A DNA stretch of 62,998 nucleotides, the filler included. It is 7 parts of 7 records of this genome, joined end to end, with 100 filler letters (N's around TTAATTAATTAA, not from the genome) between each part and the next. Parts side by side here need not be neighbours in the genome. Positions count along the whole stretch, not along the records: positions 28,887 to 35,234 come from DRR723986_51643; 6 more parts are not named here. One strand, given 5' to 3'. Shown one piece after another: positions 28,887 through 35,362 of the stretch. The number at the start of each line of letters is the position of its first letter. The first letter of the stretch is position 1. Position numbers and translations under genes: made by a program. Below the pieces are notes generated by a model. The model had not been told where the DNA came from, did no database searches, and saw only the letters and a program-made list of their open reading frames with translations.

Positions 28887-31732
28887 TTGTCCTCCACATC
28901 TGACTTGTCCTCCACACCTGGCTTTTCCTCCGGTTTCTCATGGGCCGAAGCTATTCGCCAGACGCCGATCGCCTTCTCCTTGTCGTTGCGACCGATGGCT
29001 AGCCAACCGCCGTCAGAGCTGAACGCGGCCGCGTTACCGTCGATAGGAAACGAGGCGACCCGCTTGCCGGACTTCGCGTCCCATAGAGTCGCATCGCGGT
29101 TGCTCTCCCAGACGATGCCATGTCGAAGCAGAAGACGATCGTCAGGTGAAAACGTCAGAGTCGGTGAGTTGTAACGGAAGGGGGCAGGGATCTGTTGCAC
29201 GACCTTGTTCGATTCGATATCAATCAACTTAATGCCGACCAGATCGGCGATGGCCAGCGTACGACCATCGTGAGAAAACTGAATCCCCAGCACCTGATCG
29301 ATCGCTCCAGGAATATTCTCCTTGAAGGGAGCTGCTTCCTTCGGATTCTCGTTGCGGAACCGGAACACCTGCTGGCCACTTTCCAGATCCCAGATGCCAA
29401 CGCCACCGTCAGCGGGCCATGCACTGATTCGTTTCCCATCGCAAGAGAATGCGACAGATCGAATATCTCCTGTGTTCTTCGAAGTGATCGATCGAATGAG
29501 TTCACCTGTGTGGGCGTCCCAGACAAACAGCGTGCCGTCGTGCAGCATCCCCATCCGATTGGTGACGCCGCGGCAAGCGACTCGGTTGCCGGTTTGATCA
29601 ACGACGATCCGACTGAGAGTCAAATCACCGATTCCATCCCAGTTGGTTTTCAATCGCCGCAAGAGCCTTCCGGTCTGAGTATTCCAGACGCCCAATTCAT
29701 CCCCAAGACTGCAGAATACAAATCGTGAATCATCGGAGAGCGTCAAAGTGCTGCTGTACCGCGTCCACGGTTTTTCCCACTCTAGCGGCACTTCGTTTGA
29801 AGAGCGTTTGGTTTCGAAGTTCCAGGTTCGAAATCGTGGATACCGTCCTTCCTTCGCATCCCCAGGTCCGTAGGCAACGCTGTGGATATCCAATCCATAG
29901 TGAGCAAAACGAACGCTATGCACGTTCCCAACTTCGTCGAGCCAATGGTTGGTTTCGGTTCGCTGAGCTTCGACGCTCGACTCGCCAGGGGGCGTTTCCG
30001 GTTCGCGGTCTTGTACGGACACTCGAACGGTCCCACTGTGAAGCTTCACAGACATCGACGGACTAGCACCGGCTTCGCTATCAACCGATTTGTAGCTGAC
30101 TCGCAAATCAGCCACGAGATCATACTCACCTTCTGGGAGAAAAAGTGGCTGTGGTCCGTGCTTCGGGCGTTCGGTTCCCGGGCGCAGAATCGGTGACTGG
30201 ACGCTTCCCCCAAGCACCAGTGTGGCCGATTCACCGGCGGGCAGAACCAGGGTGGCTTTGTCGAATTCTTCCTGGGGAATAAAGTAGCTATGCCAGACGG
30301 TTGAGTGCGTGAGGTTAATTTGCCCTTCCGCCATCTCGGGCACGTAGGACAAGCCTGGATCGCGACGAATCTGTATTGCATCTTCAGTGCGATTCTCCAG
30401 CCAGATTTCAAACCGAACCCAGTCGCCGTACGCGAAGTCGGTCTTCGTACGGTTTGGCATGGGGCGAATTCCCAGACGCAGCCCTGAGTTTTCTTGCCCC
30501 CACTGAATGTCTGTCTCCTTTTTCGCTGGAGCTTTGTCAATTGGAAGAGTGTCGTCTGCCTGAGCGGTCATCCACAAGCTTCCCGAGACGGCCAGAGCGA
30601 CCATCGTTAGGGATGCGAAGAGTACACCTGTTCCGGCTGATTGATGAGCGTTTGGTTCAACCAGCCGTCGAACTCGTCCAAGCAGCGAACCATCGGATGC
30701 AGCCAACCCAAAGGAGCCGTGCTGGGTCGCGGGGCGATGTTCATCCAGCCACAGCAGCACGCGAGCGTAGCTGCCCGCATCTCCCGTCAGTCCCACTGCC
30801 AGATCATCACAACACTCTTCGCGAGTGATCCGTATTCGCTTCGACACCCACCAAACGGCTGGATGATAAAAGAAAATGGTCTCCACCAGGACCTGTAGAA
30901 TGTTGACGAGATAATCGTGACGGCGAACGTGGGCGAGCTCGTGAGCTAGGACCGCCTGCAACTGCTGCGAAGAAAGTCCCGTCAGAGCTGTCGCGGGCAA
31001 CAAAACCACAGGCCTGAACCAGCCGATCAAAGTAGGCACTTCAACCATCGAAGACTGCTCAACTGAGACGACTTTCTGAATGCCGAGTCGCCGTGAAAGT
31101 TGAGTAGCAACGTCTTTGACTTCGCGAGTCACCGCGCGAGTGCTATACCGTCGCAACCGTCTGGCACCATACACTGCGATGAGTGGCCGGAGAGAAAGCA
31201 CTGCGATTCCGACCAGCCAAGCAGTACACAACGTGCTCAGCCGGGGCCGAACATAATCTCTTATCGCCTTCCCCAAATCGCTGGCGCTAAACGTGGAGCC
31301 TGCTAAATCGGGGGATTCAAGAGTGCGTGAATCGGAGCCAGCACTGAACGCGATTTCACCCGGACCAAGGTCTCCTTCACTCAGTTCATCTCCAGCAGGA
31401 TTCCCTGTAACGTGTGCAGTAAATTCTGCGGTAGGCAGACCGTTGACACCGTCGCCACTCATCGGAGCCTGTGCAGAAGTGTTCCCAAAACTCACCGTCG
31501 ACAGCGCTTGAGAATCTGCCTGGGTATTGAAGAAACAAAGCGTTACCCCGGTGCAGAACACCATCGCTAACAGCGCCAAACACTTTGCAACATATCGAAT
31601 CGCAGAACTGCAATTGCTCAGGGCCCCAAGGACGACATACAGGACGATCGCAACTGCCGTGAATTGCCACAGCGAATGCAGCAACGTCCATCCAATGCGT
31701 TCAGGGAGCGTGAGGAAGAAGTCGCCATTCAT
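28887..31732 (-). CDS. BlaR1-type M56 peptidase with WD40 beta-propeller, 3'-truncated
   Basis: GWTLLHSLWQ, LAHELAHVRRHD, FFYHPAVWW, EECCDD; repeated ...VWDAHTG / IWDLESG / FSPD motifs. Confidence 0.88.
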
Positions 31733-32115
31733 GACTTGCCCTCCATGTCGTCGAGCAATCGACGAATCTCAGCGATCTCATCGGCTGAGGCTTTCTTGGA
31801 CGACAGTGCATGCAGCATAAGGGCACCAGCCGAACCGTCGTAGACCTTGTCGATTAAATTGCCCAGCATCCGTTTCTGAGTTTTCTGACGCGGCGCTGCA
31901 GCACGGTAGACTTGCGGCTTTGCTTCGTCGTCGCGCTTCAACAGCCCCTTTTCCATCATGACCGACAGCATTTTTACCGTCGTAGAATAGGTCGTCTGTT
32001 TGAATTCCTGCAGTGAATCATGAATATGCCGAGCGATGCTTGGACCATCGTCCCAGAGGATTCGCAGTATTTGCAATTCAACCTCAGTCGGTTGCGTAGC
32101 CGCCTGTCTCGCCAT
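31729..32115 (-). CDS. BlaI/MecI/CopY family repressor
   Basis: PTEVELQILRILW, YSTTVKML..MEKG, DKVYDGS; AAGGAG RBS upstream. Confidence 0.92.
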   Translation of the reverse strand: MARQAATQPTEVELQILRILWDDGPSIARHIHDSLQEFKQTTYSTTVKMLSVMMEKGLLKRDDEAKPQVYRAAAPRQKTQKRMLGNLIDKVYDGSAGALMLHALSSKKASADEIAEIRRLLDDMEGKS

Positions 32116-32143
32116 GAGTATCTCCTTTGCTGCCTAAGGAACA

Positions 32144-32199
32144 TGACGAACGAATTCGCCACTTGCACCTGATGTTAGCGAAAGAATTCGTCACGTCAA
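32144..32199 (-). promoter_or_regulatory. Promoter with two palindromic operators upstream of blaI
   Basis: TTGACG-N16-TAACAT; operators TGACGAA-TTCT-TTCGCTA (32176-32193) and TGGCGAA-TTCG-TTCGTCA (32144-32161). Confidence 0.7.
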
Positions 32200-32570
32200 G
32201 AGCGCACGCCCGCTCGTGAGCTGTGCTGTCTTCGCCCAACGAGTGCATCAGACCGGTCACAGGCTGTGATCCGGATCTTGCGATCAAAGCAGGCAACCTT
32301 CCCGCAAGACTTGCAAGTGACTCGCCAATATGGAAGCCGGTGCCACAGTACACGACAGCCATCAGGCAGTCGCAAAAAGCGACCCCCCAGAAACCGGAGG
32401 TCCTTAGTCGAGACGCTGGAGAACACGACGCTGCAATTCGGGCAAGCGGTTTGCTGAATCTTCCGTGCCGCTGAATGTCGCTCCCATAGTGAGAGCAGGT
32501 ACATAAGGGCGTAGAGCGGAAGGCAAACAACAACGATGATGATTTCGGCAATGTTTCGGAACAGGTTCAT
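32196..32570 (-). CDS. Small hypothetical protein with N-terminal TM and CxxC...CxxC zinc ribbon (cassette-like)
   Basis: CPNC and CKSC motifs; same orientation as the array. Confidence 0.6.
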   Translation of the reverse strand: MNLFRNIAEIIIVVVCLPLYALMYLLSLWERHSAARKIQQTACPNCSVVFSSVSTKDLRFLGGRFLRLPDGCRVLWHRLPYWRVTCKSCGKVACFDRKIRITACDRSDALVGRRQHSSRAGVRS

Positions 32571-32682
32571 GAATTGAGGATGTCACCAGTCTGATGTAGG
32601 CATAGTACTCGTGCTTTGCGAGGTGCAACGGGCCAGCGCAAAAAACTGTTACGTGCATCCTGAGCGTGCAGGTGTGCCATCG

Positions 32683-32967
32683 TCAGAGTGCAGCGGCCTG
32701 CTCAAATGCGATGCGTGCAAGATAGAACAAGAGCATGGATCCGCAGAACAGCCAGATCGTGCGTCGTTGAACCTTACGAAACTCATCGCCGCGATTCACC
32801 GTCGAGAAAAGCAGAGTGACCGAGGTGTAATACGGGTCAGCCCGTTCCGATTCGGTTGGTTCTGCAATACGTTTGAGCGACGCAAGCGACCACAAGCCAG
32901 CGATAAACAGCCCGATGGCAATCAATGTCAGAATGGCTGGCATCATCGAATGCAGTGCGCCCTGCAA
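32683..32967 (-). CDS. Small two-TM hypothetical protein (cassette-like)
   Basis: Two hydrophobic helices; start uncertain (TTG at 32967 or the MMPA ATG). Confidence 0.55.
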   Translation of the reverse strand: MQGALHSMMPAILTLIAIGLFIAGLWSLASLKRIAEPTESERADPYYTSVTLLFSTVNRGDEFRKVQRRTIWLFCGSMLLFYLARIAFEQAAAL

Positions 32968-33070
32968 CGTAATTATGTTTCGACACTACACCGCCGAGCA
33001 GCGGCTTCCGCGAGCGAGTCTACCACCTGACTCCTGCCTGGACAACAAGCGGCGGTTTGCCGAGCCGAGT

Positions 33071-33424
33071 CTACTGGACAGCAGGGAGCAAGGCGAAGAG
33101 ATGCGCCAGGACAATGGCAGCCTCAAGAGCAACGACAGCCATGCGTTTTGTCCAAGTCAAAGTAGAACGCAGCACGCAAACGAATATAGCTAAAGGGCAC
33201 GTAAACAGGGCAATGAGAATCGGGATCACAAGCCATTGAAGAACGGCGACTATCGGAGTCGGCAAGTCAAGGACACGCAAATCTAGTAGCGAAAAGAAGG
33301 CAGTTAAGGCTAGTGCAACAACATGGAAGTACAGCCAAAAACGTATGCCAGAACTGCGGTCAAGAGAATGTGTCGTACGGTTCTCCGGCTGGGTGGCAGG
33401 TGAGTGATAGGGGTTGTGATTCAA
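33071..33424 (-). CDS. Small three-TM hypothetical protein (cassette-like)
   Basis: Likely TTG start giving (M)NHNPYHSP; the longer 213-aa ORF translates through the repeat. Confidence 0.6.
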   Translation of the reverse strand: MNHNPYHSPATQPENRTTHSLDRSSGIRFWLYFHVVALALTAFFSLLDLRVLDLPTPIVAVLQWLVIPILIALFTCPLAIFVCVLRSTLTWTKRMAVVALEAAIVLAHLFALLPAVQ

Positions 33425-33547
33425 TTGATATGGTCGCTCGCCGAAGTTTTCACCACGCCCAGAACGAAGTGAGCGATATCTGTACCGCGGCGACGGCTGT
33501 TGCCAAACAGCCAAGGATTGCTGAAGGCCCCAGTGTCGAGCTGTGCC

Positions 33548-33685
33548 GCTAAACAGAAGTTCTTTGCGACACCGCCCGCAACGAAGCGAATGATGCCTGA
33601 ACTGGTACAGATTATACCAAGGCCAGCCCGCGAGACCAACCAAGGAAAGTGTAACGAAGTTCTCAGCGTAAAAACCATGTTGTCG
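33548..33685 (-). repeat. ~138-bp attC-like repeat, copy C
   Basis: CGACAAC-ATGGTTTTTACGC...GGTCTCGCGGGCTGGCCTTGGTATAAT...GTGTCGCAAAGAACTTCT-GTTTAGC. Confidence 0.85.
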
Positions 33686-33712
33686 GGCATTGAAGCGCGA
33701 GTGCGGTCTCAA

Positions 33713-34042
33713 TCAAGAATCATCGCGTCGAAATTCCGGCGGAAGCAACCACACTTCAACAAGCGAAACATCATCATCGCCATCCACCGCGAACCTGTAA
33801 CCACCTTCGGGGTAGTCAAGGTATGACGGTGCCGAGAGTTTAACGGTCGAGTTGCCGAACGTGTAGGAACAGGCGCCGGAGAGCACGTAGACGCGTCCAG
33901 CACGAGAGCTGCCGGGAAATGACGTGCCAGGCGGATAGGAACCAGGGCTGATGCGGTAGTGCCCAGCGGGAGTGTGCAAGGACCGGATGGCGTCGATTGT
34001 TACGTCGCAACCTGCTGGCCAGTCGTGTTTGGATACTGTCAT
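33713..34042 (-). CDS. Cupin-like hypothetical protein (cassette)
   Basis: YPPGTSF...VYVLSGACSYTFG...LSAPSYLDYPEG pattern of a cupin barrel. Confidence 0.55.
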   Translation of the reverse strand: MTVSKHDWPAGCDVTIDAIRSLHTPAGHYRISPGSYPPGTSFPGSSRAGRVYVLSGACSYTFGNSTVKLSAPSYLDYPEGGYRFAVDGDDDVSLVEVWLLPPEFRRDDS

Positions 34043-34060
34043 TTGAGTTGATCTATGCCC

Positions 34061-34197
34061 GCGTAGCGGAAGGTTTCTACGACACCGCCGTAAACTTAGC
34101 GAACTATGCCTGAATTACCAGGAATTGCACCAAGGCCAGCCCGCGTGACCGACCGCAGAAGGTTTGCCGCAGGACTAGCGTAATAACAATGTTGACT
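34061..34197 (-). repeat. ~137-bp attC-like repeat, copy B
   Basis: AGTCAAC-ATTGTTATTACGC...GGTCACGCGGGCTGGCCTTGG...GTGTCGTAGAAACCTTCC-GCTACGC (core GTT changed to GCT). Confidence 0.85.
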
Positions 34198-34232
34198 GAC
34201 ATTGCGCTGGGAGACATGCTGCAAGTTCCCGA

Positions 34233-34622
34233 TCAGCTCTCCATGGACACACCGGAAACAGCTCCGTTCTTATCGAACGTAACGGCAATGACGTAGTTGG
34301 TCGCCTCGTCCGGCAACGTGAAATCGAAGGTGTCGATGCCATCGTCTTCAATTTCGCCATCCTCGTCGCTGCCCCAGTGTGACTGCATCACAAGGATGTC
34401 GAGGACCTGTATGGCATCAGGACGGGCAACACCACAGTGCTTGATCCAGAATTCGTCGCCGATTTCGCCAAGGTGATGCGAAACGAAAAGCGTCGCCCCG
34501 CATCCGTCGCCAAGAGTTCCGTGAGCGCAGCGGATGGCGGCCAGTGCAGCTTTGCGTCGGCGTTCAATTTCATCGGCCGATGAAGACACGGGGGCCCCAG
34601 TCGCGTGATCTATGTCAGACAA
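34233..34622 (-). CDS. Acidic hypothetical protein, DUF2004-like (cassette)
   Basis: C-terminus DFTLPDEATNYVIAVTFD..G.V..VSMES; TTG start overlaps the GTT core. Confidence 0.6.
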   Translation of the reverse strand: MSDIDHATGAPVSSSADEIERRRKAALAAIRCAHGTLGDGCGATLFVSHHLGEIGDEFWIKHCGVARPDAIQVLDILVMQSHWGSDEDGEIEDDGIDTFDFTLPDEATNYVIAVTFDKNGAVSGVSMES

Positions 34623-34756
34623 CGGAAGGTTATACTACACCACGCTGAACGATACGAGCGATGTCTGAACTACAGGAAATCATACCAAGGCCGGCCCGCG
34701 TGACCACCAAAGGAAGGTGTGCCGTAGCGTAGCGTAGCGTAAAAACCATGTTGTCC
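34617..34756 (-). repeat. ~140-bp attC-like repeat, copy A
   Basis: GGACAAC-ATGGTTTTTACGC...GGTCACGCGGGCCGGCCTTGGTATGAT...GTGTAGTATAACCTTCC-GTTGTCT. Confidence 0.85.
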
Positions 34757-34768
34757 GTCCCTGACCGG

Positions 34769-35188
34769 CTAACACGGCTCGCTATTGTTGCCGTCCTGCC
34801 GAATGGATGTGACCGATACGTCATCAAGTGTCAGTGAGCCAAAAAATTCAAGCAATTGTGATTTGAGCGGTTCAGGAAATGGCTGTTCGCTGCTGACACG
34901 CGCGGTGTAGCGCTCGCATATACCCTCGAATTCTTGGTCTGAGTCGGGGGTGTAGATGCGAAATTTGTAGATCGGACCACGGCGACGGGCATCATTCGCA
35001 ACGGAAGGTAACGCTGCGTCTAAGTCGTGACCACGAAACGCCTCGTCGCGATCCCACGCGTAATCGTGGGCGCAGAGTATGATGCCGGGAACAGAGTCGC
35101 GAAGACGGGTGGCGACCTTGGTCGGGTCGAAGCATCCAACCGCGTCAGTCTGATAGCACGGAATTTTTGCGGCAATTTCGTATCGCAA
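34769..35188 (-). CDS. Hypothetical protein (cassette)
   Basis: 139-aa ORF that nearly fills the space between two repeats. Confidence 0.65.
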   Translation of the reverse strand: MRYEIAAKIPCYQTDAVGCFDPTKVATRLRDSVPGIILCAHDYAWDRDEAFRGHDLDAALPSVANDARRRGPIYKFRIYTPDSDQEFEGICERYTARVSSEQPFPEPLKSQLLEFFGSLTLDDVSVTSIRQDGNNSEPC

Positions 35189-35205
35189 CGGATTCAGCTA
35201 GAGAC

Positions 35206-35234
35206 GGCTAACGGAAGGTTTTTACGACACCGGG
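35206..35234 (-). repeat. Partial fourth repeat copy cut by the contig end
   Basis: CCCGGTGTCGTAAAAACCTTCC-GTTAGCC. Confidence 0.85.
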
Positions 35235-35334: not shown

Positions 35335-35362
35335 GTGTGTGTGTGTGTGTGTGTGGTGTGTG
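35335..35362. repeat. (GT)n microsatellite
   Basis: GTGTGT run at the contig start. Confidence 0.9.

Follow-up and report, generated by a model that had tools for sequence, protein, structure and literature searches.

The window analysed here is a 62,998-nt stretch in which seven contigs are joined end to end, and one of them (28887-35234; 6,348 bp, GC 0.549) carries, on the minus strand like all genes of interest on that contig, a series of small open reading frames (ORFs) and repeats of ~147 nt. The segment 33011-35234 is probably the distal end of a Pirellulaceae-specific, integron-like gene-cassette array. The starts of related arrays were found to lie beside a tyrosine recombinase that is a clade of its own next to IntI and Xer and that is devoid of the additional (I2) domain of IntI; judged by this linkage, the I2-less recombinase is likely to be the cognate enzyme. 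On balance, we also lean toward a wider reading, in which Pirellulaceae carry a second, orthogonal class of integron, with an I2-less IntI-sister enzyme that has a new C-terminal domain and with mini-hairpin sites free of extrahelical bases (EHBs), alongside classical integrons. The observations that carry these readings are (i) the structure of the sites; (ii) the cassette signature; (iii) the sharing of cassettes between genomes; and (iv) the linkage of array starts to the recombinase. An earlier note, based on the letters of the window, had proposed a lineage-specific cassette system that was either a divergent integron or run by another recombinase, and the attC-type cassette signature together with the non-IntI enzyme at the array heads agrees with that proposal.

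Hairpin sites and cassette units

A covariance model (CM) was built from the repeat family and run on all seven contigs of the window, with nhmmer used alongside. Three full copies of ~147 nt, one degenerate copy, and one copy cut by the contig end were detected, all in the same orientation, and the full and contig-end copies were found where the earlier note had placed them. No copy was detected by the CM in the other six contigs. The copies, and a possible relic, are as follows:

33543-33690, minus strand: repeat R1 (CM 128.9 bits, E 1e-32)
34056-34202, minus strand: repeat R2 (CM 112.1 bits, E 3e-28)
34612-34761, minus strand: repeat R3, attC-like, with 12-nt R boxes (CM 111.4 bits, E 5e-28)
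35198-35234, minus strand: repeat R4, truncated at the contig end and reduced to its 3′ arm and R′ box (E 3.4e-8 by nhmmer at 35198-35232, model positions 122-156; also aligned with the other copies)
33446-33536, minus strand: degenerate repeat directly after R1, both ends missing (nhmmer model positions 28-136, E 1.9e-7; CM 33452-33536, E 0.016)
33011-33063, minus strand: possible further relic, weak (E 1.4e-3 over model positions 39-91 with nhmmer --max; no match by the CM)

Alignments of 100 and then 149 copies (from 12 genomes plus the window) were used to define the anatomy of the site. Several features that had been read from the window copies were borne out, including (i) the AAC...GTT ends; (ii) the arms GGTTTTTACG/CGTAAAAACC, which form a 10-bp stem with no bulged base; and (iii) the spacers that differ by 2 nt, AT on one side and TTCC on the other. 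Outermost in the site are the AAC/GTT core and its R box of 10-12 bp, which is cassette-specific; these are followed inward by a 2x4 internal loop and the 10-bp stem, then by a mini-hairpin of 13 nt that bulges out, and by a second stem, of 5 bp, around a variable center. The mini-hairpin, which sits on the 5′ arm, was absent from the earlier note. The suggestion that the central part is the most conserved holds among the three window copies, where a central 21-mer occurs 3 times against 0 expected from 100 shuffles, but not across the 149 copies, in which the center divides into several subfamilies and the best conserved columns are those of both arms, AACATGGTTTTTACGC...GGCACACC and GGTGTCGTAAAAACCTTCCGTT, at 90% or more. 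Within the window, the core of R′ in R2 is GCT rather than GTT, the R′ box of R3 is complementary to the R″ box of R2 at 11 of 12 positions, and the minimum-free-energy fold of R3 is a long hairpin that runs from end to end.

The full structure of the site was proposed by hand and its pairs were then counted, while RNAalifold applied to the 149 copies returned the inner stem and the mini-hairpin only (8 pairs). Across the 21 proposed pairs and 149 copies, 98.0% of 3115 cells were paired, compared with 33-47% when the partners were slid by 1-3 columns. Compensatory changes were observed in 7 of the 21 pairs, a number reached in 0 of 500 shuffles, and the mini-hairpin covaried on its own. Like attC, the site is an imperfect AAC/GTT palindrome that folds as a hairpin; the extrahelical L-box bases and unpaired central spacer of canonical attC were not found, as the 10-bp L stem is bulge-free and 97.6% paired. 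The asymmetry of the site instead consists of AT opposite TTCC and of the mini-hairpin.

The repeat family was detected only in Pirellulales genomes, consistent with the lineage-specific system proposed in the earlier note. A pattern scan of 185,579 species genomes yielded 111 stretches, and among the 89 listed, full-length copies were present only in Pirellulaceae records, with only short weak matches at the 20-mer level in other taxa. The family fills cassette arrays in Pirellulaceae. The largest example described here is that of Novipirellula herctigrandis CA13, in which 82 nhmmer matches on one strand span 3,905,872-3,961,296 of an 8.58-Mb contig, giving an array of ~80 copies over 55 kb with a spacing that is mostly 400-800 bp; 19 of the 20 scored best CM matches in CA13 fell in this one array, the twentieth being at a contig end. 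Arrays of the same kind were found in Aporhodopirellula rubra, Rhodopirellula sp. SWK7, and two metagenome-assembled genomes. Overall, 44 of 301 sampled Pirellulaceae genomes contained the repeat at E 1e-10, and weaker CM matches were detected in at least 3 of 150 further genomes of an order-level sample, for which 20 candidates were scored per genome.

To describe the mobile unit, the 12 nt from the GTT of each site were compared, in 19 arrays, with the 12 nt that end at the AAC of the next site, taken as their reverse complement. The 209 consecutive site pairs were identical at a mean of 10.7 of 12 positions, and 87 pairs were perfect, compared with 7.44 of 12 for the two ends of the same site and 7.46 of 12 for random pairs. 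The match between R′ of one site and R″ of the next indicates that the mobile unit is TT...ORF...site...G, as in integrons, so that what follows G|TT is complementary to the inverse core in the cassette's own site. The crossover is placed within GTT because the sequence to the left of GTT at the first cassettes comes from an attI-like site (see below). Cassette bodies had a median length of 426 bp and usually contained one co-oriented ORF; in 172 of 209, the forward ORF exceeded the reverse ORF in length.

Cassettes were also found to be shared between genomes. Among the 209 bodies, 22 between-genome pairs reached an identity of 75% or more with 80% or more of each body aligned, including full-length matches of exactly the same extent (588/588 nt at 98.98%, 382/382, and 549/549). 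Cassettes common to genomes occupied different positions in their arrays, and among the 22 pairs no adjacent cassettes were shared as a pair by one genome pair. Duplication within an array was evident in CA13, where a 291-bp cassette is present six times and a 414-bp cassette three times. Moreover, the sequence past the attI-like junction of CA13 (GTTATGCGGCTTGAGA) reappears behind four internal attC sites, and this suggests that a copy of a multi-copy cassette occupies the first position; this first cassette was absent from the comparison of the 209 bodies.

The recombinase at array starts

As the earlier note had stated, there is no recombinase on the array contig of the window: no tyrosine recombinase was found on 28887-35234, the proximal end of which falls inside a repeat copy, and the side of the array nearer the integrase lies beyond the contig-end cut of R4. 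The first site of CA13 lies ~0.5 kb past a gene for a tyrosine recombinase (451-501 aa), with the attI-like junction ~235 bp after its stop codon. Homologs of this recombinase were detected in 27 of the 301 family genomes, and the repeat was present in 22 of these 27 compared with 22 of the 274 others. At 27 array starts, an intact-looking gene adjoined the array in 13 cases and a partial gene, pseudogene, or C-terminal remnant in 9, while 5 had none.

The attI-like junction reads GGTGTCG..A-rich..|GTT, and after it comes the complement of the first site's R″ box. It was identified at 13 of the 15 recombinase-linked starts for which the 5′ end of the first site was found (17 tried), and by manual reading at 5 of 7 scorable secondary or orphan starts (9 tried). 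As in integrons, an attI-like site stands beside the recombinase gene. Searches with IntI queries of 748 kb of array-bearing loci revealed no bona fide intI; the queries matched only these recombinase genes, at 30-37% identity (44% in one short piece), and one fragment of 53 residues. The earlier note had left it between an IntI with its extra domain and another recombinase at the proximal end of full arrays, and had named an ordinary intI upstream as the sign of a normal integron. The gene proved to be another tyrosine recombinase, and none of the examined array starts had an ordinary intI.

Remnants of the I2-less recombinase, mostly C-terminal, were located at the heads of secondary or orphan arrays in the retrieved loci, and suggest that the gene decayed repeatedly while the array persisted:

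L231:7803-8294, recombinase remnant
L230:7906-8229, recombinase remnant
L226:17540-18175, recombinase remnant
L227:3495-3659, further recombinase remnant
L222:8993-9151, further recombinase remnant
L232:13560-13733, further recombinase remnant

Comparison with known families set the enzyme apart from the IntI family. Its TIGR02249 score was 189.5 bits, below the cut-off of 265, from two pieces that leave out model positions 171-214, and its best NCBIfam model, XerA_Arch (NF040815), scored 205.3 bits against a cut-off of 220. When compared with the sequences of solved structures, XerA aligned in one piece and VchIntIA in two, with 17 residues of the query opposite residues 172-220 of the latter. 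The ~32-aa insert of IntI was present, in a MAFFT alignment, in 4 of 4 IntI and absent from 4 of 4 members of the new clade and 3 of 3 Xer; the additional domain that IntI carries near patch III is therefore missing from the array-head recombinase. An SPLD motif after the catalytic tyrosine is common to the new clade and IntI, a conserved C-terminal domain of ~100 aa was seen only in the new clade in the alignment, and the catalytic residues R, K, HxxR, H, and Y do not vary among 45 members. In a quick tree search over 42 sequences and 333 columns, the new clade (16 sequences), IntI (15), and Xer (6) were each recovered at a Shimodaira-Hasegawa-like approximate likelihood ratio (SH-aLRT) of 99. 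The array-head recombinase is its own clade beside IntI and Xer. All 120 listed homologs are named XerC, XerD, or tyrosine-type recombinase and never integron integrase, the name that the classical enzymes of the same genomes do carry.

An AlphaFold model of the enzyme (predicted local distance difference test, pLDDT, 83.8) was nearest among solved folds to VchIntIA (2a3v, E 8e-16), followed by XerA (E 3e-13). The C-terminal domain was modeled at pLDDT 84.2 as four strands and three helices and had no Foldseek match at E 0.001 or better. Its best VIA Z of 6.8 was to SpoVG (root-mean-square deviation 3.7, 76 residues aligned); as this value is within the range of common arrangements, no fold is claimed for the domain.

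These data fit a model in which cassettes would be excised as circles and inserted by a crossover within GTT at the attI-like site (GGTGTCG..A-rich..|GTT), which is situated 0.2-0.5 kb from the gene of the tyrosine recombinase that would be dedicated to it. This recombinase, which has a full catalytic set and its own ~100-aa C-terminal domain but no I2 domain, would represent a sister-level clade to IntI and Xer. The recombination would be the work of this enzyme rather than of the classical IntI that most of these genomes also encode, presumably on folded single-stranded DNA, and the strand used is likewise inferred.

Alternative readings and known systems

Several observations weigh against a separate system with its own dedicated enzyme. 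The AAC/GTT core is identical to that of integrons, and classical IntI was detected (at E 1e-60) in 33 of 44 repeat-positive compared with 126 of 257 repeat-negative genomes; given this modest enrichment, action of IntI in trans has to be allowed for. The order in which the new clade, IntI, and Xer branch is not settled by the tree, which includes only two non-planctomycete IntI (both from a betaproteobacterium). The orientation of the recombinase gene is not fixed: it follows that of the cassettes in 11 arrays and is divergent in 5. No recombinase was detected at E 1e-40 in 22 of the 44 repeat-positive genomes, and still none in the 10 of these that were re-searched with all candidates scored; a single-contig genome of 7.25 Mb has arrays of 4 and 11 copies and neither enzyme, with one array keeping a recombinase remnant. 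Arrays without a recombinase, some with a remnant, indicate that arrays outlive the gene, as clusters of attC sites without integron-integrase (CALINs) do. Finally, in public reads (five runs, each with at most a quarter of the sampled words, all in the form of Logan contigs), the listed joints were repeat-driven, all of them linking repeat arms with sides no longer than 29 nt, and none counts as excision. One 791-nt contig of run X2 corresponds to 34154-34755 of the window and continues, from the R″ box of R3, into ~190 nt unlike the window; this single low-depth contig is compatible with a different upstream cassette.

The repeats might be pieces of an ordinary integron, in which the ~147-nt copies would be long species-specific attC sites, as the Vibrio cholerae repeats (VCRs) are, and would be served in trans by classical IntI, with the adjacent I2-less recombinase doing something else, such as stabilizing or inverting the locus. 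The sameness of the crossover core and of the cassette logic speaks for this, as do the commonness in bacteria of CALINs distant from intI (PMC4889954) and the frequency of IntI, which exceeded the TIGR02249 cut-off in all four of the first genomes and in 151 of the 301 family genomes. The new sites, however, are without extrahelical bases, which the additional domain of IntI reportedly reads, a finding attributed to MacDonald in 2006. In CA13, 2.65 Mb separate the classical intI from the new array, and this intI has an adjoining divergent array of its own, composed of ~95-nt GATAAC...GTTATC sites, with the 147-nt family absent within 20 kb. In eight genomes with long contigs, the classical intI was either on a different contig from the new arrays or 350 kb or more away from them, and 5 genomes have the new recombinase and the repeat yet no IntI at E 1e-60. 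At 22 of the 27 array starts it is the I2-less gene or its remnant, with an attI-like site, that is present. The published Planctomycetes attC model is of the classical type: built from 188 sites over 103 positions, it opens with GCCUAAC-AAuGC-GUUGCAGC and has an unpaired L-box base (PMC8352920). An ordinary integron in pieces is therefore considered unlikely. The classical integron of G002, the genome of the big new array, maps as follows:

L131:10331-17815 (contig 1, ~1,241,331-1,248,815): classical integron with at least 11 copies of ~95-nt GATAAC...GTTATC attC
1,251,272-1,252,207 of contig 1: bona fide intI, divergent from those attC

The retrieved loci of G002 contain source-masked N (L133:12673-13660 and parts of L131) that break the first cassettes, with 7,686 N in the 71.8-kb composite.

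This array, and perhaps many others, might instead be a passively kept fossil that holds the sites of a past system, is no longer mobile, and owes its variation to homologous recombination between repeats. Orphan arrays without a recombinase, some beside decayed gene remnants, are what such a history would leave, and the window itself has degenerate copies (33446-33536 and 33011-33063) and the GCT of R2. We consider this account quite improbable, as identical cassettes are duplicated within one array, a 98.98% identical cassette is present at different positions in the genomes of two species, the post-junction sequence of CA13 is found again after four internal attC sites, and the match of each R′ to the next R″ would not survive homologous recombination. 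Very improbable is a dispersed repeat, of the repetitive extragenic palindromic (REP) or miniature inverted-repeat transposable element (MITE) type, lying by chance between small genes. The size is similar and the repeats are palindromic, but dispersed copies, which the earlier note had named as a refutation of its proposal, were not what was observed: the copies are clustered and co-oriented, with the CA13 matches concentrated in one array and none in the other six window contigs, and the complementarity of the flanks follows cassette logic rather than target-site duplication.

With an integron-like array served by an I2-less enzyme as the preferred reading, the nearest known systems are sedentary chromosomal integrons, which consist of IntI, attI, and a homogeneous attC array, such as the Vibrio cholerae superintegron with its VCRs. 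Shared with these are (i) long, co-oriented arrays of mostly single-ORF cassettes; (ii) long, palindromic, species- or family-specific AAC...GTT sites; (iii) the remainder of R′ belonging to the next cassette; (iv) duplicated cassettes; and (v) an attI-like site beside a tyrosine recombinase. In contrast to them, the recombinase here is outside the IntI clade, without the additional domain and with a private C-terminal domain, and the sites have no extrahelical base in the L stem, a 2x4 loop with a covarying 13-nt mini-hairpin, and R boxes of 10-12 bp. The system is thus integron-like and parts from IntI integrons in its enzyme and in the extrahelical bases.

Gene modules between sites for a Xer-type tyrosine recombinase are likewise known from the pdif modules of Acinetobacter plasmids, which are bounded by 28-bp duplex XerC/D sites in alternating orientation and rely on housekeeping Xer; the present sites differ as 147-nt hairpins in direct orientation with a dedicated enzyme and an attI-like site. 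From the classical planctomycete integrons (Ghaly et al. 2021, PMC8352920), with which it shares host genomes, the AAC/GTT core, and cassette layout, the system differs in enzyme clade, in its separate loci, and in its site family, the classical consensus being of ~95-103 nt with an unpaired L-box base. The window, with three full sites and no integrase on its contig, would by itself resemble a CALIN, defined by Cury et al. (2016) as a cluster of attC sites without integron-integrase, as would the orphan arrays of relatives with 1-17 sites; the difference is that here one non-IntI clade heads arrays that reach ~80 sites and possess an attI-like site (PMC4889954, in the part available, which also mentions 50 non-IntI recombinases near attC sites). 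In the accessible portion of Smyshlyaev et al. (2021), the integron insertion is incompletely conserved within the integron-like subgroup of simple tyrosine recombinases, and IntI-like enzymes without the insertion have therefore been seen in sequence surveys; that portion ties the insertion-less members to no cassette arrays or sites (PMC8138268). The additional domain is restated as defining in the available text of Ghaly et al. (2022) (PMC9668308). No paper that links an I2-less recombinase with a planctomycete cassette array was found in the literature outside subscription journals.

The additional domain of IntI, paired with the extrahelical bases of folded attC, is the foundation of integron biology, and it is by this domain that detection tools define integrons. 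If the wider reading is true, cassette capture by folded hairpins evolved or persists without a domain held to be indispensable. If the system is active, (i) arrays with as many as ~80 cassettes are either overlooked or recorded as clusters without an integrase; (ii) cassette capture does not require the I2 domain; and (iii) one genome can run two separate cassette economies. The cultured strain CA13, which has both enzymes, classical IntI and the I2-less one, provides a testable natural pair for the study of what decides site and strand choice.

Cassette ORFs and neighboring genes in the window

The ORFs of the array contig and the genes at its distal end are listed below:

34769-35188, minus strand: cassette ORF c5, 139 aa, no known family (ORF listing; no match in Pfam, NCBIfam, or PADLOC)
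34233-34622, minus strand: cassette ORF c4, up to 129 aa, no family match (ORF listing; true start uncertain)
33713-34042, minus strand: cassette ORF c3, 109 aa, ATG start (ORF and cassette shared with the array of another genome)
33071 to ~33400, minus strand: probable cassette ORF c2, hydrophobic protein (homologs inside arrays; start uncertain)
32683-32967, minus strand: distal ORF, 94 aa, between the array and blaI
32196-32570, minus strand: distal ORF, 124 aa, Cys-rich, between the array and blaI
31729-32115, minus strand: BlaI-type repressor, adjoining the BlaR1/M56 gene
28887-31732, minus strand: BlaR1-type M56 peptidase, truncated by the contig start, 948 aa, with a WD40 beta-propeller at its C-terminus

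The earlier note had counted six small, co-oriented orphan ORFs. Three of these are clean cassette ORFs (c3, c4, and c5) and one is a probable one (c2), while the two distal ORFs are without recognizable repeat borders. For the six together, no significant family was identified in Pfam, NCBIfam, or PADLOC, and an Rfam search of the array contig at E up to 10 gave chance matches only and no family. The c5 cassette extends over 34623-35211, from the TT of the GTT of R4 to the G of the GTT of R3. The sole start listed for c4 is a TTG within the R′ box (GTTG; window 34621-34623/34622), and the recombination core may supply the start codon of this gene.

Two of the window cassettes, c3 and c2, are also present in the arrays of other genomes. 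The c3 protein was 75% identical by tblastn to L187:14399-14722, which lies between two repeats in that locus, and the cassette bodies were 79.9% identical over 383 of 387/388 nt. For c2, residues 96-213 of a 213-aa frame matched array-internal sequence in two genomes at 30-33% aa identity (L013:2166-2525, 32.5%, E 8e-7; L178 up to 13425, E 7e-11). Longer ORFs in the c2 frame that reach 33690/33712 read through the repeat, and the 213-aa and 89-aa ORFs across 33421-33712 were rejected as genes since they are translations of the repeat.

The two distal ORFs (32196-32967) had no repeat at their borders by nhmmer or the CM, no homolog in the retrieved arrays, and only below-threshold matches in Pfam. 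Beyond them, the genes for BlaI and BlaR1/M56-WD40 (28887-32115) flank the distal end of the array. The seven contigs of the window look unrelated, with GC from 0.40 to 0.68; as they differ in GC and are joined by runs of N around TTAATTAATTAA, neighbors in the window are not genomic neighbors and may represent different organisms. The genome nearest to the window, at 36% of words, had no match to the array contig (best E 1.09) and so relates to another of the joined contigs. The contig that follows the array opens at 35335-35351 with a (GT)n run, has a GC content of 68% with long overlapping ORFs on both strands, and is unrelated to the array.

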